IMG/VR virus record: IMGVR_UViG_3300029288_000085
Coordinates: 64,001 to 128,000 of that record
Length of the DNA: 64,000 nucleotides
Origin: a virus
Taxonomy: Duplodnaviria; Caudoviricetes
Reading direction: 5' to 3' (one strand)
Positions 20,561 through 49,098 of this stretch are shown here, one piece after another (position 1 is the stretch's first letter; every line of letters starts with the position of its first letter). The notes beneath the pieces were generated by a model. That model did not search any database. It was not told where the DNA came from and worked only from the letters and a program-made list of their open reading frames with translations. Both the position numbers and the translations under genes were made by a program.

Positions 20561-21586
20561 TTAACATCTTCCGATCCGAATATTCTTGCGTATATATCTA
20601 GACAATAATTTTTTGGCTAATGAACATATTGAAGTCTTTTCAGATGAAGATCCATCACCAAAACTTACAGCTACATCTCCTATTGCTACACTTCTAGCTC
20701 CTAAATCTTTGTATGTTGAAAGTGTTTCAATCTGTTGGTTTTCTGCAATGAAAAGAGTCTGTTCACTCTGTGCATCTTTTATATCTTTAGATAGTGGAAA
20801 AAATAACTTGAATTGAGAGTTAATTGTAGGAGACGCTGAAAACGATGATTCAAGTGTTATAGATCCGGTGGTTACATTTGATTTACTGATATTTCTTATT
20901 TCATAAAGTGGAGTACCAGTAGTTATATGTATAGTACCTTTTGCAAAAAAATTGGTTGGATATTCATTATAAGTAGATGATTTCAATGTGGAATTTCTAA
21001 AGGAACTAGTTGTAAATGGGGTTCCACAGTTACCAGTTTTTACTTCATGATCATCTCGTGGAAATTGTAATGCTTGTGAATCATAATATTTCTGACCAAT
21101 AAAACTAAATGAATCTATTTCTTTTGCTGATTCAATTAGTAGTCTTTTTTTACCTTCAACATCCAAAGTATCCCACTTATTATCATGCCCATACTTATTT
21201 CTGATATAATCATTTGCTTCCTTTAAAGTGATATATGAATTTGCACTCATATCACCTAAATTCGTATTTAATGTAACATTTCCAAACACTTCACAAGTTA
21301 TATATTTTATATATCTATCTCCAGTGCTAGTCTTTGCACGAATTTTAATCGAATAAGTTTCACCAGTTACTCCTCTATTGAGTCTAAATTTACCTGTTCT
21401 TGGAGAACTTGCAGAAACATTAGACATCATACTGGCATTTTTAGACACATTGTTGTTATCATAAATAGATGCCCAACAACTAGCAATAGTATCACCAGAG
21501 GGAAATTCGTTTGTAAAGTCGTACTTTACATTGAATATTTCTGCTGGATACTTATATAACCAAGAATTTTCATAGGTAAATTTCAT
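20561..21586 (-). CDS. Head-tail adaptor (DnaT-like domain) fused to an N-terminal fibre-adaptor-like domain
   Basis: ANSY.TL.EA..Y...W...L..A..ID..F.G.K...QALQFPR, IKDAQ.EQ and IGDVAVSF adaptor motifs. The N-terminal K.P.E....YDF....GDTI.S...G..G..Y.I..A.TS.G domain is an extra module. Confidence 0.75.
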   Translation of the reverse strand: MKFTYENSWLYKYPAEIFNVKYDFTNEFPSGDTIASCWASIYDNNNVSKNASMMSNVSASSPRTGKFRLNRGVTGETYSIKIRAKTSTGDRYIKYITCEVFGNVTLNTNLGDMSANSYITLKEANDYIRNKYGHDNKWDTLDVEGKKRLLIESAKEIDSFSFIGQKYYDSQALQFPRDDHEVKTGNCGTPFTTSSFRNSTLKSSTYNEYPTNFFAKGTIHITTGTPLYEIRNISKSNVTTGSITLESSFSASPTINSQFKLFFPLSKDIKDAQSEQTLFIAENQQIETLSTYKDLGARSVAIGDVAVSFGDGSSSEKTSICSLAKKLLSRYIRKNIRIGRC

Positions 21587-21599
21587 TTGACATACTTCC

Positions 21600-23810
21600 T
21601 TATTTAAATGTTGTTTTCCTTTTATTGGATATAAAGCTTCTAGATCTCGTTATAATTAGACTAGATGACTTTCTTATTTCTGCAAAATTTCTTGTTCTTT
21701 CTAAATCATTAAATTCATATCTGAATACATCATATGATGAACTTTGTGAACTAGAGCTAGAAGACTTTGAGCTAGATGATTTAGAACTAGAAGACTTAGA
21801 GCTAGAAGACTTTGAGCTAGACGACTTAGAACTACTGACAGAGCTAGAACTTTGTGAACTAGAGCTAGAAGACTTAGAACTAGACGACTTAGAACTACTA
21901 ACAGAACTAGAACTTTGTGAACTAGAACTAGAAGACTTAGAACTACTAACCGAACTAGAGCTAGAAGACTTAGAACTACTTTGTGAGCTAGAACTAGATG
22001 ATTTAGAACTAGACGACTTAGAACTACTAACCGAACTAGAGCTAGAAGACTTTGAGCTAGAAGACTTAGAACTACTTTGTGAGCTAGAACTAGATGATTT
22101 AGAACTACTTTGTGAGCTAGAACTAGAAGACTTAGAACTACTTTGTGAGCTAGAACTAGAAGACTTAGAACTACTTTGTGAGCTAGAACTAGATGATTTA
22201 GAACTACTTTGTGAGCTAGAACTAGATGATTTAGAACTACTAACCGAACTAGAGCTAGAAGACTTAGAACTACTAACAGAACTAGAACTTTGTGAACTAG
22301 AACTAGAAGACTTAGAACTACTAACCGAACTAGAGCTAGAAGACTTAGAGCTACTAACCGAACTAGAACTAGATGACTTAGAGCTACTAACCGAACTAGA
22401 ACTAGATGACTTAGAGCTACTTTGTGAGCTAGAACTCTGTGAACTAGAACTAGAAGACTTAGAACTAGATGATTTAGAACTACTAACAGAACTAGAGCTA
22501 GAAGACTTAGAACTACTAACAGAGCTAGAACTCTGTGAACTAGAACTAGAAGACTTAGAACTAGATGATTTAGAACTACTAACAGAACTAGAGCTAGAAG
22601 ACTTAGAACTACTTTGTGAACTAGAACTAGAAGACTTAGAACTAGATGATTTAGAACTACTAACCGAACTAGAACTTTGTGAACTAGAGCTAGAAGACTT
22701 AGAACTACTAACAGAACTAGAACTTTGTGAACTAGAACTAGATGATTTAGAACTACTCTGTGAACTAGAGCTAGAAGACTTAGAACTACTTTGTGAACTA
22801 GAACTAGAAGACTTAGAACTAGACGACTTAGAACTCGACGACTTAGAACTACTAACAGAACTAGAACTCTGTGAACTAGAACTAGAAGACTTAGAACTAG
22901 ATGATTTAGAACTACTGACAGAGCTAGAACTCTGTGAACTAGAACTAGACGACTTAGAACTACTAACCGAACTAGAGCTAGAAGACTTTGAGCTAGAAGA
23001 CTTAGAACTACTTTGTGAGCTAGAACTAGATGATTTAGAACTACTTTGTGAGCTAGAACTAGAAGACTTAGAACTACTAACCGAACTAGAGCTAGAAGAC
23101 TTAGAACTACTTTGTGAGCTAGAACTAGATGATTTAGAACTAGATCTACTTGAACTTATACTTGAAGAACTTTTACTAGAAGATGATTTACTTGAACTAG
23201 ACTTAGAACTAGATGATTTAGAACTACTTTGTGAGCTAGAACTAGAACTAACAAAAGTACCCCCGCCAAAATCATCAATTCTAAGATTAGTTCCATAACA
23301 ACATAGTCCGATATATCCAGCAGACCCATAAGTTGAATCTGTTGTGGATAATTTTTCAGTCCATGCTCCTCCTGTGTAATAATAAGCTTTTAAGGCTGTA
23401 CCTATCGCCGAAAGTCCAATTTTCTCCCCACTGGCTACATTCTGAGTCGTAGTTGCTAAGGTTGTCCATCCACCATTAAGCATCTCGTTGATGTCCCATG
23501 TGTCAGGAGAATCATTCAGATTTATATCTAAAATATATCCATCGCAAGTACCAATGTTTAAGGTTGTAGTTCTAATTGCAAGAGATACTTCATCATTAGT
23601 TACAGTGGATATAGTTGCAAAGACTTCGGAAGCAGCCCCAAATGTTGCAGTGTCCCAAGCTCCAACATTAAGGGCACCAGCAGTTCCTCCTGTACACGCA
23701 TTACTCTGAATCTTAAGTGTATTGAGCATATTCGTCCAATTCGCATTGGGCGGGGTGGTATTATTCGCACCCGTGAATGTTTCAATTACACCAGTAGTAG
23801 GAAATGCCAT
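21600..23810 (-). CDS. Serine-rich repeat protein: 187 aa lectin/ConA-like N-domain, 505 aa poly-Ser stalk, 44 aa C-terminal tail
   Basis: Direct translation. No signal peptide is visible. It is coupled to the upstream ORF by TAATG and runs in the same direction as all flanking genes. Confidence 0.85.
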   Translation of the reverse strand: MAFPTTGVIETFTGANNTTPPNANWTNMLNTLKIQSNACTGGTAGALNVGAWDTATFGAASEVFATISTVTNDEVSLAIRTTTLNIGTCDGYILDINLNDSPDTWDINEMLNGGWTTLATTTQNVASGEKIGLSAIGTALKAYYYTGGAWTEKLSTTDSTYGSAGYIGLCCYGTNLRIDDFGGGTFVSSSSSSQSSSKSSSSKSSSSKSSSSKSSSSISSSRSSSKSSSSSSQSSSKSSSSSSVSSSKSSSSSSQSSSKSSSSSSQSSSKSSSSKSSSSSSVSSSKSSSSSSQSSSSVSSSKSSSSKSSSSSSQSSSSVSSSKSSSSKSSSSKSSSSSSQSSSKSSSSSSQSSSKSSSSSSQSSSSVSSSKSSSSSSQSSSSVSSSKSSSSKSSSSSSQSSSKSSSSSSVSSSKSSSSKSSSSSSQSSSSVSSSKSSSSSSVSSSKSSSSKSSSSSSQSSSSQSSSKSSSSSSVSSSKSSSSSSVSSSKSSSSSSVSSSKSSSSSSQSSSSVSSSKSSSSSSVSSSKSSSSSSQSSSKSSSSSSQSSSKSSSSSSQSSSKSSSSSSQSSSKSSSSSSQSSSKSSSSKSSSSSSVSSSKSSSSKSSSSSSQSSSKSSSSSSVSSSKSSSSSSQSSSSVSSSKSSSSKSSSSSSQSSSSVSSSKSSSSKSSSSKSSSSKSSSSKSSSSSSQSSSYDVFRYEFNDLERTRNFAEIRKSSSLIITRSRSFISNKRKTTFK
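21735..23249 (-). repeat. Low-complexity coding tandem repeat (alternating TCT/AGY Ser codons punctuated by K, Q, V)
   Basis: Plus strand shows CTAGAA/CTAGAG hexamer runs over about 1.5 kb. Confidence 0.95.
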
Positions 23811-24319
23811 TAGCTGTTCGCTACCTCATCATCAGTTGCATCAATACTTTTTGTTGGTCGTGTATCACCATCAACTACTAATTCTCCACTTGTAGTATCT
23901 AATCTAGGAGTTAGTCTTCTTCTAGCAGCAAATCTTAAGACATCACCTAAAGTTTTTTCTCCAATATCACTTCCAATATTATCTCTAATCTCTTGTAGAG
24001 GATACCCCATATTTCTAAGTTTATTTACAATCGTACTTTTCTGTTGTGATGTGAGATCAGATAATGAATGTGACAACATATTCTTAGGTAATCGTATAAC
24101 TCCTGTTAATGCAGCTATAGCATTCAAAGTCTGATCAGATGCCCGTATTTTAGCAATTATTACATTTCCAAGAGCTTCAGATCCCGCCCAAGCTCCACCA
24201 TCTCCAAAAATCTGACTTGATAATTCTAAGAATTTTGGTCTTCTAGTCCATTTTGGAAATCCGTTTGGATCAGGATTAACCCATATAGTATAAGGTGCTA
24301 TAAACCATGCTACAGACAT
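23810..24319 (-). CDS. Hypothetical protein translationally coupled to the Ser-rich protein
   Basis: ORF track, TAATG overlap, AAGGGG RBS. Confidence 0.7.
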   Translation of the reverse strand: MSVAWFIAPYTIWVNPDPNGFPKWTRRPKFLELSSQIFGDGGAWAGSEALGNVIIAKIRASDQTLNAIAALTGVIRLPKNMLSHSLSDLTSQQKSTIVNKLRNMGYPLQEIRDNIGSDIGEKTLGDVLRFAARRRLTPRLDTTSGELVVDGDTRPTKSIDATDDEVANS

Positions 24320-24345
24320 TGTAGAATTCCCCCTTTTAAATATTA

Positions 24346-25047
24346 CTATGCTAAAATATAATATTTTCTCAACAAACTGTCGAGACGTTCTGATACTGAA
24401 ACAATACCAGTATTCTTTCTATTCAACCTATGAATTTCCCAAGCAATCCTACTAAGCGGATTCATATGAGAAACTAAGATAGGCTTTTCAGCTCTTTGTC
24501 CTCTTTCTTTATAACCAGAACATCCTACATTATAGGTAGAATTGATTATAGTTACTCTATCTCTAACTGTGGATGACTTTAGAATTTTATTAAGGGTTGG
24601 TTCTTCTTTATTCTCACCCTTTGAAATAATAGTTGTTATAATGTTTATTATATCTTTTGCTGCTGGATATCTCCAAAATACACTTCCACCATTTAATTTA
24701 GGATTACTGTATGTTGCAATTCCTACATCTTTTATTTCTGGTGGATCGAACTTATAATTTTGCCAACAATCTAGGTCTTGACTCCATATGATGTTATCAT
24801 TAATAAGATTTTCAAAAATCCACAGTAATGCAAACATCTTTGACCCAGTTAAACAATGTTTATTCAATTCTATATTATTTGCACTTACTCCCATAAATTC
24901 AAAATCAAAATTACTCACTAAGATAATATCCTTCTTATTCCATTCTAATTCAATCATGTTATCTATCTGTGCTTTTAAATTAGTGATTATATTTTCTTTT
25001 GAATAACGACCTTTTGATTGCACGTTTGCAACCATTAATCTTTTCAT
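24346..25047 (-). CDS. GT-A fold glycosyltransferase (nucleotide-diphospho-sugar transferase / GT8-like)
   Basis: DLD (DxD) motif, NGGSVF, and Y/N-V-G...H near the C-terminus. Confidence 0.65.
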   Translation of the reverse strand: MKRLMVANVQSKGRYSKENIITNLKAQIDNMIELEWNKKDIILVSNFDFEFMGVSANNIELNKHCLTGSKMFALLWIFENLINDNIIWSQDLDCWQNYKFDPPEIKDVGIATYSNPKLNGGSVFWRYPAAKDIINIITTIISKGENKEEPTLNKILKSSTVRDRVTIINSTYNVGCSGYKERGQRAEKPILVSHMNPLSRIAWEIHRLNRKNTGIVSVSERLDSLLRKYYILA

Positions 25048-25895
25048 ATATCTATCTCTTGCTCAAAATTCTTAATAAGATGTGCCTTACCCCAATGTTG
25101 ATTCATATTTGCTTTAAATTTTTTACAAGCAATATTACAAAGTGAAATTAAAGCATTTCTTCTCTGGGTATACTTCCAATCTTTATCAGGATAGTTATCA
25201 ATAAAATGACGTTTATGATGTTCTACTACTTGACAGAAATCACCAGTGAACTTTGTTATTGTAAATCCCAAATGGTATGCTCTACACAGAATATCCTCAT
25301 CATCAAATCCATAAGCAGAACCGAAGGATTCATCGTAGCCTCCTAAATCATCAATAAATCTACTTTTGAAAAATCCTAATCTTCCTCTATTTGTTTGCTT
25401 ACTCTTAATAAAGACTAGTTTGTCAGTATCAAACTGATTAGCTATTTCATTTATTCTTTTCGAAAATCCAAAAAGGGTTAAATGATCTGCATCAACATTA
25501 TTGACTATATCTCCTGATGCAATTTTGAAAGCTATGTTTCGTGAGTGTGTCATACTATAGAACTTTGGTTCTATTGTTTTATAGTAATTCAAATAACCTT
25601 CTTTAATATATTCTGACAACTCATGCTTAACAAAGTCATCCATATCATCATTACTGTTATAGTTCAATAATACAAACTCCGTATTTGGGTACGTTTCAAT
25701 ATTATCAATTAAATTAGTAACATATGTTTTTTTAAGATCATAAGTTCTTCCCATACACGTAGTGCAAATTGAAATCTTATATTCTTTTCTTATTGGATTT
25801 ATAAATTCTGGTAAAACATACTCAAGGTTGAAATACTTTTCCCACACGTCTTCATTAGTCAAACCTAATAAGAAATCATCTCTCATCCTCATCAT
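25044..25895 (-). CDS. GT2/GT7-like glycosyltransferase
   Basis: ISICTTCMGR, SRNIA, NVDAD, GGYDE.F...YGFDDED. Confidence 0.85.
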   Translation of the reverse strand: MMRMRDDFLLGLTNEDVWEKYFNLEYVLPEFINPIRKEYKISICTTCMGRTYDLKKTYVTNLIDNIETYPNTEFVLLNYNSNDDMDDFVKHELSEYIKEGYLNYYKTIEPKFYSMTHSRNIAFKIASGDIVNNVDADHLTLFGFSKRINEIANQFDTDKLVFIKSKQTNRGRLGFFKSRFIDDLGGYDESFGSAYGFDDEDILCRAYHLGFTITKFTGDFCQVVEHHKRHFIDNYPDKDWKYTQRRNALISLCNIACKKFKANMNQHWGKAHLIKNFEQEIDI

Positions 25896-26410
25896 AGTTT
25901 AGTTGCCCACACACAATCCTCTAACAGTGTAATATTGTTACCAAATAATCTATCTATCACTACAGCTACATCCTTATGTCTTCGAGAATTATAGTCATGC
26001 CCAGACAATATACCATCTTTTCTGATATGAGGAATCCAAGCAATGATATCCCGTTCTAATGCTGCCATGGAATGATCTGCGTCTATATAAACCATGTCAA
26101 AATATTCTAGTGGAAATATACTTGCTGCTTCAACAGATTCCATCCTTAAAACTTTCAAAGCAGAAAAATATCTCATTAAAGTACAGGCATATTTATATAG
26201 ACTATTCCAATCGTTTGGAGTAAGTCTAGACATACGACCTTTATCACTTCCAAAGAAGCACCACGAATCAATTGCCCAATATTCCTTCACTTGTTTAGTA
26301 TTCTTAAGTACATGTTTTACGGTTTTACTTTTCCATATTCCTACTTCTGCAATCCTTTTACACTTATTATCTAGTATAAGTTTTAATACTGATTCACTAT
26401 GAATTGGCAT
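25892..26410 (-). CDS. Class I SAM methyltransferase (Methyltransf_24-like)
   Basis: AEVG.W, DMVYIDADH, G.LSGHDY. Confidence 0.9.
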   Translation of the reverse strand: MPIHSESVLKLILDNKCKRIAEVGIWKSKTVKHVLKNTKQVKEYWAIDSWCFFGSDKGRMSRLTPNDWNSLYKYACTLMRYFSALKVLRMESVEAASIFPLEYFDMVYIDADHSMAALERDIIAWIPHIRKDGILSGHDYNSRRHKDVAVVIDRLFGNNITLLEDCVWATKL

Positions 26411-28925
26411 AAATATCTATAATTACCTCATTCCACTTTGCGGGGTCTAAATTAGCTTTTGCCCAATCTTTAGCATTTTGACCCAATGCTTGTCGAAATT
26501 TTTCTTTTCTTATTAATGTACTGAGATGAACTAAACATTCATCATAATGAGTAAAATAGTATCCTGTATCACCATGAATTATTCTATCTTTTGTACCATC
26601 TCTAGGTTCTGAGAGAATTGGCAATCCGGTAGCTAAAGCTTCTGCAATACAACGAGGATAGTTATCTCTCCACATATTACTTGTTCGATATAAATATATA
26701 TGTCCTTTGCTTAAAAATTCTTCTACTGGGATTTCATCCCATTTAAAGAACTTCATCCGTGGTTCATCCTTAAAGAATTCTGCAAGTTCTTTATGAGCTT
26801 CCATAAACCAAAATTGTGTATTCTTAGTATCTTTGAGAAGTCTCTGATAAAATTTAGTATCTAATTCCTTATCAAGATGTTTCTGCCATATATGTATTTT
26901 GCTTCCATTCTTCACAGATTCATTAGTAGTATATTTTCTATAATCTGGAGTACAATGTTTAAGTACTATGAGAGGTTCATCTTTTTCTCTTGGTTTTGTA
27001 CATACCTCGTAGAATTTATTCATATCTATAGCTCCAAATAATACTATCTTCTTCGTATTATCAAATCCAATAACTTGTCTTTCCCATTCCTGTTTCTTCT
27101 CTTCATTTTGAAATATAACTGCCTTCAACTTATTTGATTTGATAAGCCATTCTGAAATATCAGGATTCTTGAGATGACCAAACATATAATTAATGCCTAT
27201 TATAAGTATAGAACATTTATCAACTAATTTCTTACCAGCTTGTAAAAAATCATTTATATTATCGTTACCATAGAATAGTAACGGGGTATTTTCAATACAT
27301 TCAGATATACATCTTCCACCATCGGGCTTGAAACTATAGTTTGATAGGTGTACATTCTTAGATTTTATATCTTTATAATTTTCATGTACACTATCCCAAG
27401 GAAATAATTGGACATCCCACCCTGCATCACCTAATACATCAGCAATCTTAATCAGACTTTGTTCCCCACCACCATGACTACTGAGACTACCTAACAGATT
27501 TATAGATTTAGTTTTTTCAACAATTTCAAAGCTATTAGAAATTTTAATTGCATCATCAGTATTTACTTTATCGCATGCAACACACGTTGTACAATCATCA
27601 CTATCAGAAGCTATGCAATCTCTTCTGTTCATATATGTATAAATATCTCCTTCATAATATCGTTTTATTGCTCTTATGACATCGTCCGAAGTAATCACAT
27701 CCATACACTCTTGGATAGTTCTACCATCAGAAGAAGTTGTACTTTTACATAAATTCTTATTTTGCTTTGGATCTTTAGGTATAGGTATAATCCTAGATTT
27801 CCAACATCCACCATTATCACAACATGTAAATACTCCATTTGTATGAAGAATCTGATGATTACAGTATTCTGTCCACGCTTTTGACTCTCTACCACCTTCT
27901 ATAACTACACAGGGCTTTCTCCCTTTTTCAGTATACTTAGATGGAATTGCTGCTGCAAGATGCATTAACATACTGATACCGCTAATGCAACCATCAGCAT
28001 GATAGACTAGGGAAACTAGTGGTCTCATATTATCATTGAATTTATCAGTCAAATCAATGATATTATTCAACTTTTCTACTAAATGATCACTTCGTCCTAT
28101 AACTACAAATTTTATCTTTCCTTCAAAATGGTCTATGACTTCTTGGAATCTTCTCCAATCCCAAATCTTTGTAGTGGCATCCCGTTTTCCTCCAGGAGCT
28201 ATTAGCCAATACTTATTATATCCATATACCTTTTGTATAAGATCATGTTTCTTTTCATCTTCACTTAAATGAATATCCCCACGTTGTCTAGCAAATGACT
28301 TTCCAAAGTTCTTATATTGATTTACTAATGAGATGAATGGTTCATGAGAATTAGCATTCTTGTCTGGTTTACCAAGACAAGGATCTCCTACTTCACCATT
28401 TGCAAAAGCACTACAGAATTCTCCTAATGACACAGGAAGACTTTTATGTAAATCAGTGATAGCAATCATATCTAATAGAAATGCCATCGTGAAGTGTACG
28501 TATGTATTATTTGCCGACGCAATTGCTGGATATCCAACATCATAATATTCAACATCTTTGTCTTCTTTTTTCAAAGACCTATCTATATATGGATTATTTT
28601 CCCAAATCCAAGGTTGACTACTATCTACATTTATTCTTATATCTGGAAAGAGAAGTTTGAAATCTCTAACCCCTGCACTAAACATTAAGGCATCTCCTAC
28701 TGCTCGTTTATGTGCAAAGATTATTTTTCTATCATTATTATCTGATTCTGTTAAATTCTGAGCCACTTCTTTTTTGAATATTGTATCATCAGGAGTATGA
28801 AGATGTAGATGACCGTCATCAAACTTCAACCCGATCAATACTTGGCTTAAACTTTTATCACCAATTTCTTTTGTTTTGAGTATATCTTCTGCCTCATCTA
28901 GAAGTCTCTGTTTTATCTTATTCAC
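26397..28925 (-). CDS. Two-domain glycosyltransferase: GT9 (heptosyltransferase-like) plus GT4-like
   Basis: N-domain RAVGDALM, APGGK..T.K.W, LMHLAAA; C-domain GGGEQS, R.IAEALATGLP. Confidence 0.85.
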   Translation of the reverse strand: MNKIKQRLLDEAEDILKTKEIGDKSLSQVLIGLKFDDGHLHLHTPDDTIFKKEVAQNLTESDNNDRKIIFAHKRAVGDALMFSAGVRDFKLLFPDIRINVDSSQPWIWENNPYIDRSLKKEDKDVEYYDVGYPAIASANNTYVHFTMAFLLDMIAITDLHKSLPVSLGEFCSAFANGEVGDPCLGKPDKNANSHEPFISLVNQYKNFGKSFARQRGDIHLSEDEKKHDLIQKVYGYNKYWLIAPGGKRDATTKIWDWRRFQEVIDHFEGKIKFVVIGRSDHLVEKLNNIIDLTDKFNDNMRPLVSLVYHADGCISGISMLMHLAAAIPSKYTEKGRKPCVVIEGGRESKAWTEYCNHQILHTNGVFTCCDNGGCWKSRIIPIPKDPKQNKNLCKSTTSSDGRTIQECMDVITSDDVIRAIKRYYEGDIYTYMNRRDCIASDSDDCTTCVACDKVNTDDAIKISNSFEIVEKTKSINLLGSLSSHGGGEQSLIKIADVLGDAGWDVQLFPWDSVHENYKDIKSKNVHLSNYSFKPDGGRCISECIENTPLLFYGNDNINDFLQAGKKLVDKCSILIIGINYMFGHLKNPDISEWLIKSNKLKAVIFQNEEKKQEWERQVIGFDNTKKIVLFGAIDMNKFYEVCTKPREKDEPLIVLKHCTPDYRKYTTNESVKNGSKIHIWQKHLDKELDTKFYQRLLKDTKNTQFWFMEAHKELAEFFKDEPRMKFFKWDEIPVEEFLSKGHIYLYRTSNMWRDNYPRCIAEALATGLPILSEPRDGTKDRIIHGDTGYYFTHYDECLVHLSTLIRKEKFRQALGQNAKDWAKANLDPAKWNEVIIDIYANS

Positions 28926-29482: not shown

Positions 29483-29485
29483 AAT

Positions 29486-32014: not shown

Positions 32015-32023
32015 TTAAATCAC

Positions 32024-38844: not shown

Positions 38845-38900
38845 CTCATCTCATAATAATTACATCCTTTAACTTGATGTATTTTTTTATGCAATGTATG
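38841..38900 (-). pseudogene. Second HNH C-terminal remnant, overlapped by a 41-codon CxxC...CxxC mini-ORF (38846..38971)
   Basis: Encodes HKKIHQVKGCNYYEMRC; 28 of 30 nt are identical to 20486..20515. Confidence 0.6.
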
Positions 38901-38948
38901 CAAACCATACCCCATTCACGTTTATTAAATTCATTGTCTTTCCTATCC

Positions 38949-39683: not shown

Positions 39684-40572
39684 CTCCTGATTTTCCTAAT
39701 CCACTACCATTATAAAACATCAGCCTCTTATCTTCTACATCTACTACACACGAAAAACAGATTTGTTCTGAATCCCAACCAGTTTCAGATACATCTATGC
39801 CAACTTCACTATCTTTTCTTATCCACTTCACTCCATCTTTAGATTCTGCATATCCTATTCTATATCCTACATCAAATCTTCTTATAGAATACCACATTTT
39901 ATATATTCTATCCTCTTTGATGACCCAAGGACGAGCTAACCCAAACTCATGTTTAGATCTTGGTATATAACATGGAAATCCCATTTTAAACATTTCACCA
40001 TCCGTCGATGAAGCATAAGATATACTATAACGTTCAACATCTTTACCATTATATTTTGCTATAAACCCCGTTCTGCTTCCTGTATACCACATTTTATATC
40101 TATCGAAATCTTTTATGACACATGATGCTGATCTAGCAATAAATTCTATATTAGTTCTATCTAAAATAGGAATTTGGTATTTTCTAATAAATGTATCTCC
40201 ATTATCTACACTAGTAGCTAATCCAGTAAAAAGAATTTGTGGTGCTTCAGTAGTTTTCATAAAACCAAAGTAATATAAGTATTTTATCTTACCAAAATTT
40301 AATATACAGGAAGGAACTACGCCATGTTCATCAAATGTACCTTTTTCTCCTTGTATAAGACATGGTTCTTCTGATTCGTATAGTATTTTCTTTGGGTTGG
40401 ATTTATCAACATCAATATATCCAATACGACCAATCATATTTTCATCTAGTGAAGTAGTATATATACGGATACAATCATCCCTAATATCTACTGTAGGAAG
40501 ATATGCCCGTTCTCTAGCCCACCACTTTTTTCCATTAGGTTTCCAGATGAAACCACATTTCTGCCATTTCAT
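39658..40572 (-). CDS. Five-bladed beta-propeller glycoside hydrolase/phosphorylase-like protein
   Basis: G..G.FD..GV, LA.S.D.G..F, Y.MWY, YA.S.DG..W repeats. Confidence 0.75.
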   Translation of the reverse strand: MKWQKCGFIWKPNGKKWWARERAYLPTVDIRDDCIRIYTTSLDENMIGRIGYIDVDKSNPKKILYESEEPCLIQGEKGTFDEHGVVPSCILNFGKIKYLYYFGFMKTTEAPQILFTGLATSVDNGDTFIRKYQIPILDRTNIEFIARSASCVIKDFDRYKMWYTGSRTGFIAKYNGKDVERYSISYASSTDGEMFKMGFPCYIPRSKHEFGLARPWVIKEDRIYKMWYSIRRFDVGYRIGYAESKDGVKWIRKDSEVGIDVSETGWDSEQICFSCVVDVEDKRLMFYNGSGLGKSGVGYAQLCK

Positions 40573-41339
40573 TTAAGACAGTTTTCCTTTGCTTCTGATT
40601 CATCACTACATACATTACAATTTATACATTTAGAATAACCAGTCGTATAATCATCAAAATTTAGTATCCATTCATGTCCTAATATATCTCTATAATATGG
40701 TTTAGTAAGATTTAATCTATTGTCTTCTTTATCACGTTTCCAAGTATGTCCTTCTTTGTATAATGAATTAGCTTTAATAAATGTAGAATCTGGTACATTG
40801 ATATTATTTATAACTGTACTATTAACCCCAAAGAAACAATTGTTTCCTATAGTCACATGACCACAAATACAAACTTCTGAAGTGATAAGATTATGTGATC
40901 CAATAACCGAATGATGCCCAACATGTGAATTAGCCCAAATTGTCGTATTTTCTCCTATTTTTATAAAGGGTTGAATAGTATTACCTTCCATTATAAAACA
41001 ACCTTCACCAACTATTACATTATTCCATACTGATGCTTTGCTACTGATATAAGTTGCCATTTCATAACCTTTATCTCGTGCTTCATAAAACTTCTTTTCT
41101 CTTAATTTGAGATTATCCCCATAACCAACAGCAATAAACATCTTATGAAAGTTAGGATCATATATGTCTTCAACATATTCAAATTCCACAATAGGCAAAT
41201 TGAATTTTGATGTTTCTTTCATATGACTTTTATCTACTGTAAAAGCCACAACTTTAAGATTAGAATCATGAGTAAAATATTCATATGCTAGTTCTGCAAA
41301 AGATGAAGTACCAAAAATTACTATTTGCTTATTAACCAT
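40569..41339 (-). CDS. Sugar O/N-acetyltransferase (NeuD/PglD-like, hexapeptide repeat) with an extra C-terminal Cys/His tail
   Basis: IVIFG...FAE, F.AVGY...R, and (I/V)G....I hexapeptide repeats with GHH. Confidence 0.85.
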   Translation of the reverse strand: MVNKQIVIFGTSSFAELAYEYFTHDSNLKVVAFTVDKSHMKETSKFNLPIVEFEYVEDIYDPNFHKMFIAVGYGDNLKLREKKFYEARDKGYEMATYISSKASVWNNVIVGEGCFIMEGNTIQPFIKIGENTTIWANSHVGHHSVIGSHNLITSEVCICGHVTIGNNCFFGVNSTVINNINVPDSTFIKANSLYKEGHTWKRDKEDNRLNLTKPYYRDILGHEWILNFDDYTTGYSKCINCNVCSDESEAKENCLK

Positions 41340-41340
41340 A

Positions 41341-42285
41341 TTAATTTAACTCCTTACGATATGTCTTTCTTAATACTCCCCTACCACCAAACCCACTCTT
41401 AAATTTAAATAATCCCCAATTCACTTTTTCACCCTTATCTTCTGTCGATATTCCTAAGTTTGCATACTTATAACTATTATCTAACCCCCACCTCATTACT
41501 TTATATATCACAACATTGAGAGAACGAAGAATCTGAAATTCATAATTCTGAGCAATATAAAAGATCTCAAAAGCATTCTCATTACCTTTGAATATTACAA
41601 TTCCAGCAGTCATTATATCTTCGTTATATGCAGTTACTAAAATTATATCATATGGAAATAAATTCTTTAGTCTTGTTATCTCTTCAATTGTATGTGTGGG
41701 CGCAACAGAATGTCTCTGTTCTAGATTCTTAGTGAGAATTTCCCAATATTTTTGCCATTCAATACTGTCAAATTCAATTCTAATATCCTGTGCTTTTCTT
41801 ATTGAACGTTCTGTTGAATCATCAATAAGAAATAGATTGTCTAACCGTATTGTACAAGCAAGATCCTTTGCAGAAAGGTTATATCCATTTCTTAAAAGCA
41901 TATATTCTAATTCATCACTTGGAACCTTATTATAGATATAAGGTGTCAATCTTAACTCAATTGCTTTATAAGAGGGAAATGATAGTAAGTCAATTATTTC
42001 ACGGATATCATCAAGGTCAGTATGGTAAGATAATACTAAACCTCCAATAGAACTACCTGGATGGCTAAATATAATCTTCTTTCCATTTTCAGATTTTTCT
42101 GCTGCTGGAAGTACAGCTACAAGTTCATTTCTTTTATAAAACATTAAGGATTTGTCTATGAAGCGATTTTTGTGGTAGGATAAAAATTTACGCAGATGAA
42201 AGATAGTGCCATTCTTTGAATTTTTTAAAACAAATAGATCCCATGAATCGGCTAGTAAGTCATTATAGTTTACACAACTGATCAT
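41341..42285 (-). CDS. GNAT / FemAB-like acyltransferase
   Basis: WD.FV..S.NGT.FH.R.FL.YH, SHPG...GG, G.STE..G..N.GL..FK.GFG. Confidence 0.85.
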   Translation of the reverse strand: MISCVNYNDLLADSWDLFVLKNSKNGTIFHLRKFLSYHKNRFIDKSLMFYKRNELVAVLPAAEKSENGKKIIFSHPGSSIGGLVLSYHTDLDDIREIIDLLSFPSYKAIELRLTPYIYNKVPSDELEYMLLRNGYNLSAKDLACTIRLDNLFLIDDSTERSIRKAQDIRIEFDSIEWQKYWEILTKNLEQRHSVAPTHTIEEITRLKNLFPYDIILVTAYNEDIMTAGIVIFKGNENAFEIFYIAQNYEFQILRSLNVVIYKVMRWGLDNSYKYANLGISTEDKGEKVNWGLFKFKSGFGGRGVLRKTYRKELN

Positions 42286-43270
42286 CTTCCCATTTCCTTG
42301 GTATCTCTTCCCCTGACAGGAAAGCCTCTAAAATATTTTTAAATTCCAAAATTCGATGTCTATCTAAATGATATCTGTTGATGACCTGAACAGCGTTGTC
42401 AACTATAACTTGAGCCTCATCTAGATTTTCTCTTATGTATTTCACTACTTTTATTATGTCACTAAGATCATTCTTATACTCAAAGAAAAATTCTTCTTCA
42501 CCAAATAATTCTTTCTGTCCATAAAACCAAGGGGTTAATAATACTGTTCCACTTGCCATTATTTCAAACATCTTTCCCAGAGTACAATGTAAATCACCAC
42601 CAGCATCTGATAGTCCAATAGTATATTTTCTTAATTCTATTGGATATTCTTTAGCTGGAATTATTTCTCTGTTAACTATTAAATTATGTTGTGATAATTT
42701 ATCAATAGCATTTTTCCTAAGACTATATAACTTTTCAGCTTTACCTATATTACCTAAGAAGACTACATTATTTACTCTCTGATGTAATTTTTCCCCTTCA
42801 TTAAATTCATTTTCATTTACTGACAAAGGAAGCCAAACTTTAGGCATAGTTAGTGGATCATTTTTCTTCATATATGACCTATTTATCATAAGATCAAATC
42901 CCATGTTACTGTACCAGTTAAGATCTGTATCATACAGTACAGCATAATAATCACCCTCAAAAATTACAAATGGTATGGAACTTAACTTATTCTTTGCTGG
43001 CATCCAATTGTGTGTTAGATTATATGTGAATGCAATTATGATATCTGGTCTGAATATACTATATAAATCATCTAGTGTATACTTACTATTATATTCAACA
43101 GGTGACAAAATTTTATCATTTAGAGTTTGTTCTTTAGGGCCATAAATGTTTACTTGGTGAAATTGTATCATCTTCATCCAAAAATCAAAATGTAATCTAC
43201 TAACATATGATCTTACATCACCTATTGAGGAATCAAATAGATATAGTAGCTTCATTTTATAGCCCACCAA
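42263..43270 (-). CDS. CgeB-like glycosyltransferase
   Basis: WLP.SV, LRK.AI, K.FEIMASG; paralogous to 37855..38844. Confidence 0.8.
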   Translation of the reverse strand: MVGYKMKLLYLFDSSIGDVRSYVSRLHFDFWMKMIQFHQVNIYGPKEQTLNDKILSPVEYNSKYTLDDLYSIFRPDIIIAFTYNLTHNWMPAKNKLSSIPFVIFEGDYYAVLYDTDLNWYSNMGFDLMINRSYMKKNDPLTMPKVWLPLSVNENEFNEGEKLHQRVNNVVFLGNIGKAEKLYSLRKNAIDKLSQHNLIVNREIIPAKEYPIELRKYTIGLSDAGGDLHCTLGKMFEIMASGTVLLTPWFYGQKELFGEEEFFFEYKNDLSDIIKVVKYIRENLDEAQVIVDNAVQVINRYHLDRHRILEFKNILEAFLSGEEIPRKWEDDQLCKL

Positions 43271-43764
43271 TCAGCAGTATCTGTATCTTCACATTTAAAA
43301 CAATATAGTTGTACATCCATATGATCACAGAAGAACTCATCTACTGCTTTTGTTACATTCAAATCGGTAAAATCATGTCCAGCAAATAACCCATCTAATT
43401 TTACTTTTGGATAGTATAACTCTAAATCTAATTTTATGTTATCATATTTATGATCCCCATCTATATATACAAAATCTAAAGTCTCATCATTAAATAAATT
43501 AATTACCTTTGCAGAAAAGTTTTTAATCCAAACAATTTTAGCTATATATTTTGAATCTAATCGACTATGGGCCAAATTTTCCCATCTGTTAATATTTTCT
43601 TGTCTAAAATGCTCATATTCTATGTAGGGGTCAATCAAATATAATAAGGCTATGTCAAGATTTTCTAGAATATTAAGAGCATTTTCTCCAGAACTAACCC
43701 CAATCTCAACACCAGTAAGATTTTTTCTATTTTTTATTACTCTGAATGCTGGTCTACTTATCAC
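43252..43764 (-). CDS. Class I SAM methyltransferase (Methyltransf_24-like)
   Basis: GVEIGV..G.NA, LIDPY, DFVYIDGDH, AGHDF. Confidence 0.9.
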   Translation of the reverse strand: MISRPAFRVIKNRKNLTGVEIGVSSGENALNILENLDIALLYLIDPYIEYEHFRQENINRWENLAHSRLDSKYIAKIVWIKNFSAKVINLFNDETLDFVYIDGDHKYDNIKLDLELYYPKVKLDGLFAGHDFTDLNVTKAVDEFFCDHMDVQLYCFKCEDTDTADWWAIK

Positions 43765-45188
43765 GGCTTAAATATCCAAAAGTCATGAGATCTAGAATCA
43801 TTAGCATCAACCGCAGAAAAGATTTCTACACCTTTAGCTTTGAAAAAATCATATACTGCTCTTTTTACTTGATTACCATCATTCTCCTCATCAAAATCAT
43901 GCCCTGCAACAAGACCTCCTGATTTGACTTTAGGATAATATAATTCTAAATCTTTCATCACTGCATCATATTTATGATCCCCATCTATATATACAAAATC
44001 TAATAATCTATCAATCTTCTCATATGCCTTGTCTGATGGCTCATAAATCCATGTGATTTTACGCATAAAATTATGAAGTAATTTTATAGAATCATTCTTT
44101 GTTTCATCATCATTTATATATGGGTCTATAAGATACATGTGTTCAATACTTAGATTAGCAAATATATTAAAGGCATTCTGACCTCTAAAAACGCCAATCT
44201 CTGCACCAATCATATCTTTCTTATCTTCAAGATTCCTGATTGATGGTCTATCTATTTTTCTAACTATATTTACCATTCGAGCAAATACAGCTTCCCAAGT
44301 ATATTCATTTACAGCCCTTGTTCTACCATTTATTGCAACTTTATAAGCCATACTATCATCAACTGATTTCATTAACTTGAGTAAATCATTTTCATTTTTG
44401 AAATAGAAAAGGTCTTTCTTGTCTTCAAAATATTTATTGAGTGTGCCAGTTGAATCTAAATGAAATACACAAGAACCACAAGCAAGGTATCTTATCAGTC
44501 TATTACTAAAATATTCTGTATGGATATCATTATAAGTATTTAATGATAGCATAAATTTTGATGATGAACACACTGTTGCAAAATCTGATTCAACAACTTC
44601 TTGTGGACTGTAACCATTACCATAGAACTTCACATTATATCCGGCATCCTCAAGAACCTTTTTATACTTGTCACGTTCTGGAGTTTTAGAACCAATAAAC
44701 GATATATCTGCTATACAATTACTATTTGAGTCTGTTGGTCTAAAAATGCTTGCGTCAATACCTTGTATAATGTGATGACATTTTCTTACACCCTCTGATT
44801 CGAACCATTGAGCAATATCTAATCCTGTACAAGAACTGAAATTAGCATTTTTAGCATGTTGTATAACTTCAGGGCAAGATTCAATCGTCTTTTTAGGATC
44901 AGGATTAAATAGCCATGTTTGCGTATAAGCATTACTTTTAGTAATAAGATCTGAATTCATACCATTACATTTGAAAAATACAGTTAAATATGGTCTGTGC
45001 TTATCTAATGTATATAACAACATATCTTCAAAAAATTTATTTCCTTTACTAGATATAATTGTCCTATAATTTATAGGTAGTACTTCAAACCCTAACCTCA
45101 AAGCAGCTTTCGAAAAAGCAATATTTGTAGATCCTCGTTTGTCTAAAACGCCGACTATACAAATTGTTTTCTTATCATTATTATCCAT
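43761..45188 (-). CDS. CgeB-like glycosyltransferase fused to a Methyltransf_24-like methyltransferase
   Basis: DISFIGS..P.R and SNR...YLACG in the N-terminal part; GAEIGV..G.NA...IDGDH..AGHDF in the C-terminal part. Confidence 0.88.
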   Translation of the reverse strand: MDNNDKKTICIVGVLDKRGSTNIAFSKAALRLGFEVLPINYRTIISSKGNKFFEDMLLYTLDKHRPYLTVFFKCNGMNSDLITKSNAYTQTWLFNPDPKKTIESCPEVIQHAKNANFSSCTGLDIAQWFESEGVRKCHHIIQGIDASIFRPTDSNSNCIADISFIGSKTPERDKYKKVLEDAGYNVKFYGNGYSPQEVVESDFATVCSSSKFMLSLNTYNDIHTEYFSNRLIRYLACGSCVFHLDSTGTLNKYFEDKKDLFYFKNENDLLKLMKSVDDSMAYKVAINGRTRAVNEYTWEAVFARMVNIVRKIDRPSIRNLEDKKDMIGAEIGVFRGQNAFNIFANLSIEHMYLIDPYINDDETKNDSIKLLHNFMRKITWIYEPSDKAYEKIDRLLDFVYIDGDHKYDAVMKDLELYYPKVKSGGLVAGHDFDEENDGNQVKRAVYDFFKAKGVEIFSAVDANDSRSHDFWIFKP

Positions 45189-45609
45189 TTATCTTCTCCA
45201 TTATTCCTATAATAATATTATCATAAGTATCTGGTTTTCGATATACAATCACATCATCCTCTTCAGTTGGCTTTTCAAAGTATGAATCTTTCCACATATA
45301 CTCAGTTGTACCATCAACAAATATCTGAATAGGTTTGATAAACTTCCTCATACACTCCAACCTCACTTTTCTAATTGGAGCAACCATTGCTATAATTGGT
45401 AAAACACCTTGCTTCTCAAATCTAGCTGCTAGATTAGATAACATATGCATCCATTTTGTTCTATCCTCATCAGTAAATCCTTTATAATATAAATCTTCTC
45501 TCATCTCATCTGCATCAAGTAATATCGAATTACTAATACTACTATTAAGATATCTTCCTAACGTACTTTTTCCCATTTTTACATACCCAAAAATAATGAT
45601 TACTGCCAT
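45181..45609 (-). CDS. cysC: Adenylyl-sulfate (APS) kinase-like P-loop kinase
   Basis: GxxxxGKST, LDAD..R, GFT.EDR, VAP...R, FE.P. Confidence 0.75.
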   Translation of the reverse strand: MAVIIIFGYVKMGKSTLGRYLNSSISNSILLDADEMREDLYYKGFTDEDRTKWMHMLSNLAARFEKQGVLPIIAMVAPIRKVRLECMRKFIKPIQIFVDGTTEYMWKDSYFEKPTEEDDVIVYRKPDTYDNIIIGIMEKING

Positions 45610-46131
45610 TTATTTTTCCACACTCCAATCCCAATCTTCAACACGTATCATTTTTTGTAGTGGATAGAAATAATCATTTACAGCCTTTACTACTTGTAGC
45701 CTGTATATCTTTTTAAAATCGTGCCCTGCAATCAATCCACCTATCTTTATTTTAGGATAAAAAAGAGCAATATCTTGCAATACATAAGGGTATCGATGAT
45801 TACCATCAACATAAGCAAAATCCAATGGATCTCTGACATGAACAGCCATATTTTCTGATAATCCTCTTAACCACACTAGCTTATCTTCAAATGGGGCTAA
45901 TATCTTTTTAGCATATTCCATGCATTTCAGAGCAGTTTCACTATTAGAAATTACACCATGCCCTTGCATATGATCATAACACATCCAAGGATCTATTAAA
46001 TATAGTTTTTTAATATTAAGATAGGTAAGCATAGAGAGGGCATTTTCTCCTGAGTCAACTCCAACTTCACAGCCAACAAGATTTGATTTTTCAGATAGGA
46101 CTTTTAAGGAAGGTCTTAATTCTTGTATCAT
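45610..46131 (-). CDS. Class I SAM methyltransferase (Methyltransf_24-like)
   Basis: GCEVGV..G.NA, DFAYVDGNH, GGLIAGHDF. Confidence 0.9.
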   Translation of the reverse strand: MIQELRPSLKVLSEKSNLVGCEVGVDSGENALSMLTYLNIKKLYLIDPWMCYDHMQGHGVISNSETALKCMEYAKKILAPFEDKLVWLRGLSENMAVHVRDPLDFAYVDGNHRYPYVLQDIALFYPKIKIGGLIAGHDFKKIYRLQVVKAVNDYFYPLQKMIRVEDWDWSVEK

Positions 46132-46133
46132 TA

Positions 46134-47132
46134 TTATCCTCTTTGGATTATTTCATTTAACTTATTTATATCATCCCCTAATACACAATCAAATTCATTT
46201 ATACCAGAATTTTCTGGTATAATAGTAATTATTTTCTCCCTCATTAATGCATCAAGGAATACCGCAAGATCTTTTGCAACGGTGGTAGCATCTATAGCTC
46301 TATAATCATAAACATATCTAAAAGAGCATGGAGTTTCAAATCTATTTTCTGCGATACAATGTCTATCCTTCTCATGTCCTATAATTAAAGAAGGAGTTCC
46401 ACAAAGTAGTCCGACATGAGTAAGACCTGATTGACTACTCACACAAGCTACAGATTTACACATATAATCCATTACCTTTTCAAACTTATCATCACTTTTA
46501 TCAGGAATAAGATTAATTACATTCTCACCTTGGTAATCTGCAAGAAAGGAACCAGAGGGTGTTCCACATAATACTACATAGAAATCTTCTCTTAGTATAT
46601 CTACTAATTCTCTCCAAACATATTCAGGAACATTTCTAATTGCTGCACGAGAACGCCCACGAGGACATACACATACGTATGGTCTACCTCTTATAGTACG
46701 ATTACTATTTTCAGTGGAATAGCGGGCATACATGGAGGGTTTATGATTTGGCCAGAACTTATCCGTTCCACGTGGTGGCCAAAACTCAATAGCTTTAGAG
46801 GGGTTATAAAACTGTCTAAAATACTCTATTAATTTGGCGTAAACATCTGGGGGTGTAAGCGAACCTGGAGGACTTCCTGGTAATGGTGATTCAAAGCAAT
46901 CCTTCTCAAGTTGTAATTCCTTAAACCAATCTGGTAGGTCCACTGTGTAGGATGTAAAATCATGTACCAAGACATGAAACTGAGTATCCATCATTATGAT
47001 AAACTTCCTGTCTTGGTACATGTTATTTTTCATATATCTAAGTAATGATTGATAATATTGACATAGCCAACCGAGTTCCCCGCAAAAGAAACTAACAAAA
47101 CAAGGTTCATCCACATAAAGTTCTTGTTTCAC
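46134..47132 (-). CDS. GT9-like glycosyltransferase
   Basis: GELGW, PR.R....RN...W..L, SQSG.TH...LCG.P. Confidence 0.7.
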   Translation of the reverse strand: MKQELYVDEPCFVSFFCGELGWLCQYYQSLLRYMKNNMYQDRKFIIMMDTQFHVLVHDFTSYTVDLPDWFKELQLEKDCFESPLPGSPPGSLTPPDVYAKLIEYFRQFYNPSKAIEFWPPRGTDKFWPNHKPSMYARYSTENSNRTIRGRPYVCVCPRGRSRAAIRNVPEYVWRELVDILREDFYVVLCGTPSGSFLADYQGENVINLIPDKSDDKFEKVMDYMCKSVACVSSQSGLTHVGLLCGTPSLIIGHEKDRHCIAENRFETPCSFRYVYDYRAIDATTVAKDLAVFLDALMREKIITIIPENSGINEFDCVLGDDINKLNEIIQRG

Positions 47133-47507: not shown

Positions 47508-47516
47508 ATCACACTC

Positions 47517-47918: not shown

Positions 47919-48011
47919 CTCCTAATTGCAAAATTACCTTCACTACTTCCATTTCCACTAAACTACCAACACACATTTTAGTAAAGGAGTTATATCTCAA
48001 TATTATATATT

Positions 48012-48050
48012 GATGACTATTGGTGGGTTATTCACCCACCAACATAATCA
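48012..48050 (-). terminator. Strong hairpin after 48051..48458 (terminator or processing site)
   Basis: TGATTATGTTGGTGGGT-GAAT-AACCCACCAATAGTCA; no clear U tract. Confidence 0.5.
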
Positions 48051-48458: not shown

Positions 48459-48549
48459 ATTTCATCACTTCCTTTTAGAGTGAGTGGTATATAGACAATA
48501 TGTCAGTATCTATATCGCATCGTATACGGAAGAAATTATACGAATCTCA

Positions 48550-49071: not shown

Positions 49072-49098
49072 TTTGAATACTTACCTCCATAAGTCATT

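Follow-up and report, generated by a model that had tools for sequence, protein, structure and literature searches.

The head-to-neck interval of an uncultured 144-kb phage carries two adjacent sets of glycan enzymes, one of which, a four-enzyme glycosylation cassette, stands beside a gene for a protein with a long serine tract (the poly-Ser protein). The analysed window comprises 64,000 nucleotides (G000:C1:64001-128000) of the 144,334-bp IMG/VR virus record G000, and coordinates are those of the window unless stated otherwise. In many independent phages the cassette and serine tracts are linked by position, and some proteins carrying such tracts elsewhere are, judged by their domains, plainly recognisable particle or tail proteins, so that dedicated O-glycosylation of virion serine tracts is the simplest reading. 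With a probability of roughly 60%, we favour cytoplasmic O-glycosylation of virion proteins with the poly-Ser protein as the acceptor of the cassette; put differently, this phage probably sugar-coats its own particle. We infer all chemical steps, the acceptors and the presence of the proteins in the particle.

The cassette and the adjacent poly-Ser gene

Enzyme families were called by Pfam and NCBIfam profile searches and virion genes by PHROG and Pfam searches. The 7.3-kb block between u186 and the adaptor gene Ad1 (Unit A, 21600-28925, or 21.6-28.9 kb) holds, in the order of transcription on the minus strand, the genes for GT9-GT4, MT24a, GT2, P0003, P0002 and the poly-Ser protein. The first cassette gene (26397-28925) encodes GT9-GT4, a two-domain glycosyltransferase of 842 aa that matches part of the GT9 profile (PF01075, E 4e-6) and the GT4 family (PF00534, E 2.5e-6). 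It is followed by the Methyltransf_24 methyltransferase MT24a (25892-26410; PF13578, E 2e-10), by a GT2 glycosyltransferase of GT-A type (25044-25895; PF10111, E 1e-8) and by the last cassette enzyme, the GT-A-fold protein P0003 of 233 aa (24346-25047). P0003 has no family match and was assigned from an alignment (A7), in which a DLD motif is invariant, from its AlphaFold2 (AF2) model, which is good over residues 1-170, and from Foldseek, whose top matches, although weak (E about 4e-4, TM 0.43-0.48), are A64R, the capsid glycosyltransferase of the chlorovirus PBCV-1, and GlyE of the pneumococcal serine-rich-repeat pathway, both of them protein-glycosylating GT-A enzymes. In the GT9-like half of GT9-GT4 (alignment A6), seven cysteines (C313, C339, C368, C369, C374, C393 and C407) are invariant in 19 of 19 sequences, a pattern that suggests an insertion for metal binding, comparable to the TibC iron finger; the motif CCDNGGCW occurs among them. 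P0002 (23810-24319; 169 aa, no family match) is start/stop-coupled to the poly-Ser gene, and neither it nor the adaptor showed homology to the neighbours of lectin-domain genes in the one P22-like phage compared.

The poly-Ser protein (21600-23810; 736 aa) combines a lectin-fold head, a serine tract and a basic tail, and is the candidate mucin-like acceptor of O-glycans. Residues 1 to about 190 are predicted to form a ConA/CBM66-type beta-sandwich (AF2 pLDDT 96.6), and Foldseek matched this head to CBM66, to galectin and to predicted domains of actinophage tail-fibre or receptor-binding proteins. The tract of 505 residues contains 411 Ser (81%), 50 Lys, 24 Gln and 18 Val, and a basic tail of 44 residues closes the protein. 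Five serine codons (TCT, AGT, TCA, AGC and TCG) are used in the tract, and since both codon boxes are mixed, selection acts on serine itself rather than on a DNA repeat. That the tract is a translation artefact of a DNA repeat is ruled out by the mixed codons, by an in-frame length variant and by the folded domains that flank it. The variant comes from an independent assembly that is 99.6% identical, in which the same protein (L003:10001-11080) has 359 aa, an in-frame difference from the 736 aa seen here. This leaves the length of the tract uncertain, either through real length variation or through collapse of the repeat in one short-read assembly.

The lectin-type head belongs to a very large family (P0001:1-195; alignment A1; P0005-P0153), which clustering at 50% reduces to 2,537 representatives. 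The majority of its members are stand-alone phage proteins of 200 aa or carry other repetitive tails. Among the best 150 matches of the domain, none carries poly-Ser except P0004, the shorter allele of the same protein. Homologues of the domain in P22-like phages are located in the head module. The domain starts with MAFPTT and ends with DDFGGGT, and the tails after it differ from member to member; some tails repeat a motif like RLINKLTR, and one has a glycoside-hydrolase-like insert.

GT9-GT4 has 312 relatives at E<=0.001, and the best 120 of the 312, at 48-68% identity, are almost all metagenomic. GT9-GT4, MT24 and GT2 genes are found together with a P0003 homologue (52-55% identical) on two long contigs assembled from different samples (GC 37% and 49%), each of which also encodes poly-Ser proteins (369, 628 and 649 aa). 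A scan of IMG/VR added 27 further GT9-GT4 loci, giving 29 loci in all with the two contigs, and 16 of the 29 have at least one co-oriented open reading frame (ORF) with a serine-rich stretch of at least 60 residues. An MT24 gene accompanies GT9-GT4 at 19 of these 29 loci, GT2 homologues of 43-55% identity are found at 17 and P0003 at 16, and the order GT9-GT4, MT24, GT2, P0003, poly-Ser recurs in phages with a GC content from 29% to 49%. The 29 loci and the locus of the phage studied here were dereplicated at 85% enzyme identity, which left 21 lineages. In this census, which is small, was drawn from pattern-seeded searches and includes several loci that stop at contig borders, a co-oriented poly-Ser gene lies within 10 kb in 10 of the 21 lineages, and among the eight lineages whose sequence continues beyond P0003, six have one no more than 2.5 kb downstream. 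No poly-Ser gene was found in 16 control loci (290 kb, from related and unrelated phages without the cassette), nor in the remainder of the G000 genome. A first-pass annotation of this DNA had tied glycosyltransferases to poly-Ser proteins and proposed that metagenomes be searched for their co-occurrence; the tie gains comparative support for the four-gene cassette, whose neighbours in many phages of separate descent include poly-Ser genes, and fails for the glycan genes at 28.9-47.1 kb.

The proteins that bear the tracts differ widely. In one, a serine tract of 330 residues is fused to tail protein L (Phage_tail_L, Pfam E 1.8e-39); another has a DUF2460 domain at its end; a third, of more than 1,852 aa, consists of globular domains linked by four poly-Ser linkers. 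Directly upstream of one GT9-GT4 gene lies an ORF with 85% serine among its 1,585 residues (L053:5248-10002), whose non-repeat residues number about 20 at the N-terminus and about 10 at the C-terminus. In all tracts analysed, AGY and TCN serine codons are mixed. A short acidic motif, approximately FEDTGAV-x-W/F-x-DTD-x-V-x-FED, flanks the poly-Ser blocks in L037, L038 and L058 (also in L050 and L053) and may be a docking or recognition element.

A variable island shared with related phages

The other glycan genes of the interval (Unit B, 28922-47132) have a different history. A search with a CgeB-like enzyme of this block led to G001, a complete phage genome of 135,715 bp with terminal repeats, and to five more viral contigs. 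G001 and the phage studied here share 60% identity in the capsid protein, 52% in the portal, 46% in the terminase and 48% in the adaptor. All these relatives (G001, L022-L025 and L027) follow a common plan, in which the major capsid protein (MCP) gene is followed by four small genes, the glycan island, in some cases u186, and Ad1. A GT9-like gene opens each island, in most cases as a fusion with MT24, and a CgeB-like gene follows directly or at a short distance; in G001, L022 and L023, u186 closes the island ahead of Ad1. The remaining content varies: sulfotransferase, APS kinase or RmlB genes are found in the phage studied here, L022 and L027, acyltransferases and a GH130-like gene in this phage and L023, and a SPASM radical SAM enzyme with DUF7796 in G001. 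Unit A is absent from the relatives, so within the clade it occurs in this phage only. At this locus, genes for a poly-Ser protein or a lectin domain are missing from all of the relatives, and the whole G001 genome lacks a homologue of the lectin domain and any Ser/Thr-rich protein. By gene order and content, 28.9-47.1 kb is an island of clade-conserved position and variable content, and 21.6-28.9 kb is a separate, phage-specific insert. The idea that poly-Ser is the acceptor of the entire island is rejected for the core island (28.9-47.1 kb), given the relatives without poly-Ser. The first-pass annotation had treated some 23 kb as one unit that ends at its own acceptor and had named, as an observation that would speak against this, relatives that keep the island without Ser-rich proteins; for the part at 28.9-47.1 kb such relatives exist, the complete G001 among them, and the single unit was given up.

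All Unit B genes lie on the minus strand. The first of them in transcription order encodes GT9b, a GT9-like glycosyltransferase (46134-47132) with a weak profile match (PF01075, E 2e-4). The genes that open the islands of G001 and L022-L027, MT24-fused in these relatives, encode proteins 44-57% identical to it; a profile search of solved structures with GT9b gave no match. There follow a Methyltransf_24 methyltransferase (45610-46131; PF13578, E 1.7e-12), an APS kinase (45181-45609; PF01583, E 3e-12; homologue in L027), an enzyme that makes the sulfate donor PAPS, and a CgeB-like glycosyltransferase fused to a Methyltransf_24 domain (43761-45188; PF13524, E 2.5e-13; PF13578, E 7e-13). This fusion has 168 relatives at E<=0.001, and the best 120 of the 168 show 40-60% identity. 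Close relatives of the CgeB-like enzyme occur on viral contigs and, among 185,579 cellular genomes, on four short contigs of metagenome-assembled genomes (MAGs) only. Some relatives of this transferase (P0165, P0206) carry fused sulfotransferase domains, which places glycosyl transfer and sulfation in one protein. Next come a Methyltransf_24 methyltransferase (43252-43764; PF13578, E 9e-13) and CgeB-like glycosyltransferase 2 (42263-43270; PF13524, E 9e-8), a paralogue of CgeB-like glycosyltransferase 1 (37855-38844; PF13524, E 1.4e-5). Between these two paralogues lie a FemAB-like aminoacyl or acyl transferase of GNAT fold (41341-42285; TIGR03019, E 1.3e-8; PF02388 weak; shared with L023), a hexapeptide-repeat, PglD-like acyltransferase for amino sugars (40569-41339; PF00132, E 3e-16; PF17836 weak), a GH130/beta-propeller-like protein with a phosphorylase or transferase fold (39658-40572; NF052550, E 3e-11 for a partial match; 49% identical homologue in L023) and a class I methyltransferase (38949-39683; Methyltransf_23, PF13489, E 4e-12).

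Downstream of CgeB-like glycosyltransferase 1, u309 (36969-37898) has no assigned role and no Pfam, PHROG or NCBIfam match, but has a homologue in the G001 island. It precedes a DegT-family sugar aminotransferase (36013-36981; PF01041, E 1e-29) and a B12-binding radical SAM enzyme (34766-36016; PF02310, PF04055) with 47% identity to its G001 homologue; the NCBIfam relatives of the latter are HpnJ, BchE and PhpK, all below their cut-offs, and it is a probable C-methyltransferase or similar enzyme. The block continues with a further Methyltransf_24 methyltransferase (34234-34776; PF13578, E 2.5e-12), with u299 (33359-34258), possibly a GT2-like enzyme given 37% identity to a G001 gene that weakly matches PF00535, and with a GT8-like glycosyltransferase (32668-33387), whose weak profile match (PF01501, E 1.4e-4) is accompanied by 49-55% identical homologues in L022, L025 and L027. 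Then u215 (32024-32671), which resembles the C-terminal half of GT9 enzymes (TIGR02201, E 0.035) and is conserved in G001, L022 and L027, is followed by a sulfotransferase (31340-32014; PF13469, E 3e-10; PF00685, E 4e-6; homologues in L022 and L027), an inserted HNH homing endonuclease gene (30497-31339), an RmlB-like NDP-sugar 4,6-dehydratase (29486-30496; PF16363, E 4e-63) and u186 (28922-29482), the left edge of the core island by synteny in G001, L022, L023 and L025.

Taken over both units, the glycosyltransferases are a GT2, the GT9-GT4 fusion, a GT8-like and a second GT9-like enzyme and three CgeB-like enzymes (Glyco_trans_1_2), one with its fused methyltransferase. They are accompanied by the B12-binding radical SAM enzyme, DegT, the RmlB-like dehydratase, the hexapeptide/PglD-like and FemAB-like acyltransferases, the APS kinase and the sulfotransferase, and by six methyltransferase domains (five Methyltransf_24 and one Methyltransf_23). 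Nearly every item in the first-pass list of glycan enzymes between the capsid and adaptor genes was confirmed by Pfam or NCBIfam. Its count of 10 glycosyltransferase genes with 11 domains came close: eight genes with nine domains are backed by Pfam, P0003 is added by its GT-A fold and DLD motif, and u215 and u299 are weak candidates, for a total of 9-11 genes. Two corrections apply to the interval, the HNH homing endonuclease at 30497-31339 and the GH130/beta-propeller-like protein at 39658-40572. Its description of a soluble pathway in the late structural operon, free of membrane-bound flippase or polymerase parts, stood. In a hydropathy scan, no island protein contained a hydrophobic segment of membrane type over 19 residues, and the Pfam matches of the island include no GtrA/B, Wzx, Wzy, ABC transporter or lipid-carrier transferase family and no secretion gene. 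No nucleotidyltransferase gene and no ATP sulfurylase gene were found in the G000 genome, and the activation of sugar 1-phosphates and the supply of APS must therefore come from the host.

The interval from MCP to Ad1 spans 29 kb inside the particle operon and contains about 27 co-oriented, mostly overlapping genes, and glycan genes take up about 16% of the 144-kb genome. Every gene from position 1 to 59,000 lies on the minus strand, and the junctions between island genes overlap or are spaced by at most 26 nt, with a single gap of 104 nt, just as the tight overlap with the structural genes had been described. The genome is complete, with direct terminal repeats on the 144,334-bp record; a second, independent assembly of 143,217 bp is 99.5-99.7% identical to it; and the GC content and skew of the island continue those of its flanks without a composition break. 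A misassembled host O-antigen locus, which the first-pass annotation had named as something that would refute its reading, is excluded by the terminal repeats, by the independent assembly at 99.6% identity, by the five syntenic relatives and by the continuous GC content and skew. The phage origin of the island is secure, and the virion genes around it are those of a lytic phage of siphovirus type.

Proposed pathway and competing explanations

We propose that the head-to-neck interval holds two adjacent glycosylation units that are expressed late and act independently of membranes. In Unit A, O-glycosylation of the serine tract by the cassette would take place in the cytoplasm of the host and need no lipid carrier, and the sugar would be methylated before or during assembly of the particle. 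The glycosylated tract would become an extended, mucin-like stalk that keeps the lectin domain at a distance from the particle; as a guess, the short basic tail at the C-terminus would anchor it. In Unit B, modified nucleotide sugars would be made by the dehydratase and the aminotransferase, by N-acyl or aminoacyl transfer and by C- and O-methylation, transferred by the GT9, the GT8 and the three CgeB-like enzymes, and the product sulfated by the sulfotransferase with PAPS from the APS kinase. The acceptor of Unit B is most likely to be found among the virion proteins (one or more of them), and in this phage Unit B may add further sugars to the glycan of the serine tract. The virion-glycan case for Unit B follows from its fixed place in the structural operon, the solubility of its proteins and its variability from phage to phage, a pattern like that of loci for exposed glycans. 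A wider generalisation, to which we give somewhat less than an even chance, is that many uncultivated phages bear mucin-like brushes, in which poly-Ser on fibre, tail-tip or lectin proteins is O-glycosylated, methylated and in some cases sulfated by a set centred on GT9-GT4, and that the 18-kb variable island adds to this, in the phage described here, the most elaborate glycocalyx known for a bacterial virus.

Several observations weigh against the proposal. That the candidate poly-Ser acceptor is a particle protein in this phage is something we infer, and its tract differs twofold in length between assemblies. About half of the lineages with the cassette have no poly-Ser gene within 10 kb, in part since contigs end, and lineages L047 and L055 have none in the available flank. 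Unit B is kept in relatives that lack a poly-Ser or Ser/Thr-rich protein, and the alignment of capsid proteins revealed no Ser/Thr-rich C-terminal tail of the kind found in mycobacteriophages. An alternative arrangement is one in which the enzymes glycosylate capsid, decoration or tail proteins, the serine tract is an unmodified flexible spacer, and the two are adjacent by coincidence at a shared insertion hot spot. Such an arrangement agrees with the core island in five relatives without poly-Ser proteins, with the head-to-neck interval being a common site for accessory genes and with the many non-serine tails on homologues of the lectin domain. We nevertheless judge it improbable, as the four-enzyme cassette accompanies poly-Ser genes in a fixed order in at least 10 independent lineages and such genes are missing from 290 kb of control sequence, and as serine is selected at the level of the amino acid.

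DNA as the target deserves attention too, and the earlier exclusion of DNA modification was too strong. Outside the window, at a distance of 34 kb from the island, lies a divergent thymidylate synthase (TS)-like gene of 247 aa (G000:53301-54044, equal to L002:1126-1869). Its product still has the PPC motif and the Asn of dUMP-type enzymes, aligns with the family profile over the C-terminal half only and could make a modified pyrimidine. In this reading the pyrimidine would be hydroxylated, and the island or its conserved core would add a complex glycan to it late in infection, with evasion of host nucleases as the benefit. TS homologues start known glycosyl-DNA pathways, in which group transfer occurs late, before packaging (PMC13326640), and GT-A and GT-B enzymes related to those of lipopolysaccharide (LPS) synthesis modify DNA from clusters some of which adjoin structural genes (10.1101/2023.12.21.572611); both the gene and these precedents count against a glycan on virion proteins. 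Known pathways are usually clustered, however, whereas the TS-like gene stands on the opposite strand at its distance from the island, and G001 keeps a homologous island while no TS, Tet/JBP or comparable match was found in that genome. A Tet/JBP gene or C5-methyltransferase was likewise not found in G000. Known DNA glycans comprise one to three sugars, as opposed to about 10 transferases plus sulfation here, and glycosylated DNA would leave the link between cassette and poly-Ser genes unexplained, so that we also regard this possibility as unlikely. Least probable in our view is a target other than the virion, such as a host molecule at the surface or in the cytoplasm, whose modification might prevent superinfection, or else a soluble glycoside or a sulfated metabolite made during infection. 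Sets of B12-radical SAM enzymes, DegT, acyltransferases and methyltransferases do occur in pathways for antibiotics and cell-surface glycans. Set against this, the island contains no flippase, polymerase, lipid-carrier transferase or any membrane protein, its genes lie in a late structural operon without a sign of lysogeny in the window, and the close relatives of its CgeB-like enzyme sit on viral contigs and are nearly absent from cellular genomes.

O-glycosylation of virion proteins, the reading that we prefer, has precedents of several kinds. In mycobacteriophages (Che8, Corndog and Myrna; Freeman et al. 2023, as cited in PMC12363180, PMC11600133 and PMC12619734), capsid and tail tube are reported to be glycosylated with two to four glycosyltransferases plus an O-methyltransferase. 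What is shared is a set of soluble, phage-encoded glycosyltransferases with a methyltransferase, which there act in the host cytoplasm on the phage's own particle proteins and here would do the same. The mycobacteriophage glycans sit on the C-termini of capsid and tail-tube subunits and are the work of two to four enzymes, in contrast to about 27 genes here, whose predicted chemistry extends to amino sugars, acyl and C-methyl groups and sulfate, and to a candidate poly-Ser acceptor. The two enzymes tested, GT9-GT4 and the CgeB-like enzyme, were also without a match in tblastn searches of 50,697 deposited phage genomes (GenBank phage records). The serine-rich repeat glycoproteins (GspB, Fap1 and PsrP, with GtfA/GtfB and GlyE; PMC7948813, PMC6973325) offer a second likeness, a long serine-rich tract beside dedicated cytoplasmic glycosyltransferases, and GlyE is among the best, albeit weak, structural matches of P0003. 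Unlike that system, the phage locus has no signal peptide, accessory Sec system (SecA2/SecY2) or cell-wall anchor, and its tract is nearly pure Ser with spaced Lys, Gln and Val on a phage protein rather than a series of SxSx dipeptide repeats. For GT9-GT4, a profile search of solved structures detected no homology to GtfA/GtfB and returned generic GT4 enzymes only (TreT and BshA-type).

TibC and AAH, autotransporter heptosyltransferases of GT9 type, act in the cytoplasm, where they attach O-glycans to a large number of serines in a protein (PMC4358343). The cysteine cluster of GT9-GT4 recalls the TibC iron finger, although its spacing differs from Cys339/342/358/370 of TibC (PMC4358343) and the profile search of solved structures found no sequence match to TibC. 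Moreover, the TibC/AAH acceptor is a beta-helix, whereas here a disordered serine tract is the candidate acceptor and the enzyme has a GT4 domain as its fusion partner. Chloroviruses and mimiviruses (PMC9614988, PMC5408694) likewise encode a multi-enzyme, membrane-independent pathway, which in their case furnishes capsid or fibril proteins with complex glycans that are methylated, and the top structural match of P0003, a weak one, is the chlorovirus enzyme A64R. These are giant viruses of eukaryotes, and homology at the sequence level is not part of the likeness. To our knowledge, neither sulfation nor poly-Ser acceptors are part of the chlorovirus and mimivirus systems. The GtfA/B-Gly enzymes, the autotransporter heptosyltransferases and the chlorovirus capsid glycosyltransferases would be the nearest functional analogues, not relatives, of the phage enzymes. 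Serotype-converting, O-antigen and capsule loci differ by the GtrA/B, Wzx, Wzy, ABC transporter or lipid-carrier transferase genes that are lacking here, and clusters for DNA glycosyl-hypermodification by a synthase for hydroxylated pyrimidines (a TS homologue, or a methyltransferase plus 5mYOX) that is not clustered with the transferases here. The papers searched contained no report of phage poly-serine proteins with dedicated glycosyltransferases.

Virus-made sugar coats are known from giant viruses of algae and amoebae and, on a small scale, from a few mycobacteriophages; about a sixth of a 144-kb genome is a notable investment by comparison. If the proposal is true, natural phage particles could bear complex, possibly sulfated, mucin-like glycans, with effects on their sticking to mucus, biofilms, particles and host envelopes, on recognition by grazers or the immune system and on stability. 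The differences between islands would then be a trace of selection acting on an exposed surface of the virion, much as in bacterial O-antigens. The GT9-GT4 cassette and the poly-Ser protein would form an enzyme-substrate pair that can be tested without culture of the phage, and the cassette might serve as a tool to glycosylate designed serine tracts.

Flanking virion genes and mobile elements

The virion genes around the island are transcribed in the order of large terminase TerL (55137-57044), portal (53482-55053), MCP (50559-51521), Ad1 (20561-21586), second adaptor (19551-19868), tail terminator, tail tube-like proteins, tape measure and distal tail genes, with TerL, the portal and the second adaptor called from PHROG and Pfam matches. 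The MCP, the upstream border of the interval, was assigned from phrog_371 (E 7e-8), distant tblastn matches to annotated capsid genes and 60% identity to the G001 homologue. Ad1, the downstream border, has an N-terminal Gp77-like domain (phrog_477, E 2e-16; PF20557, PF23148) and is 44-49% identical in G001, L022, L023 and L027. A single-protein portal search of the viral contigs gave no match. Five small head-proximal genes (s118, s173, s135, s133 and s121; 47142-49455) were recognised by BLASTP synteny and alignments and have no assigned role; the first four lie ahead of the island, and their order is kept in G001, L023, L024, L025 and L027. A scan for promoters and terminators found no excess over shuffled sequences and was uninformative.

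The HNH gene in the glycan island (30497-31339) is 37% identical to a paralogue in the tail region (17381-18319), which matches HNH PHROGs, and HNH-like genes occur at other sites of the same operon in L024, L025 and L027, a distribution that suggests active homing in this phage clade. At another locus (L028:16919-19330), a TnpB/OrfB_IS605-type gene stands between a GT2 gene and a GT2-like ORF of 98 aa and seems to have split the transferase gene.

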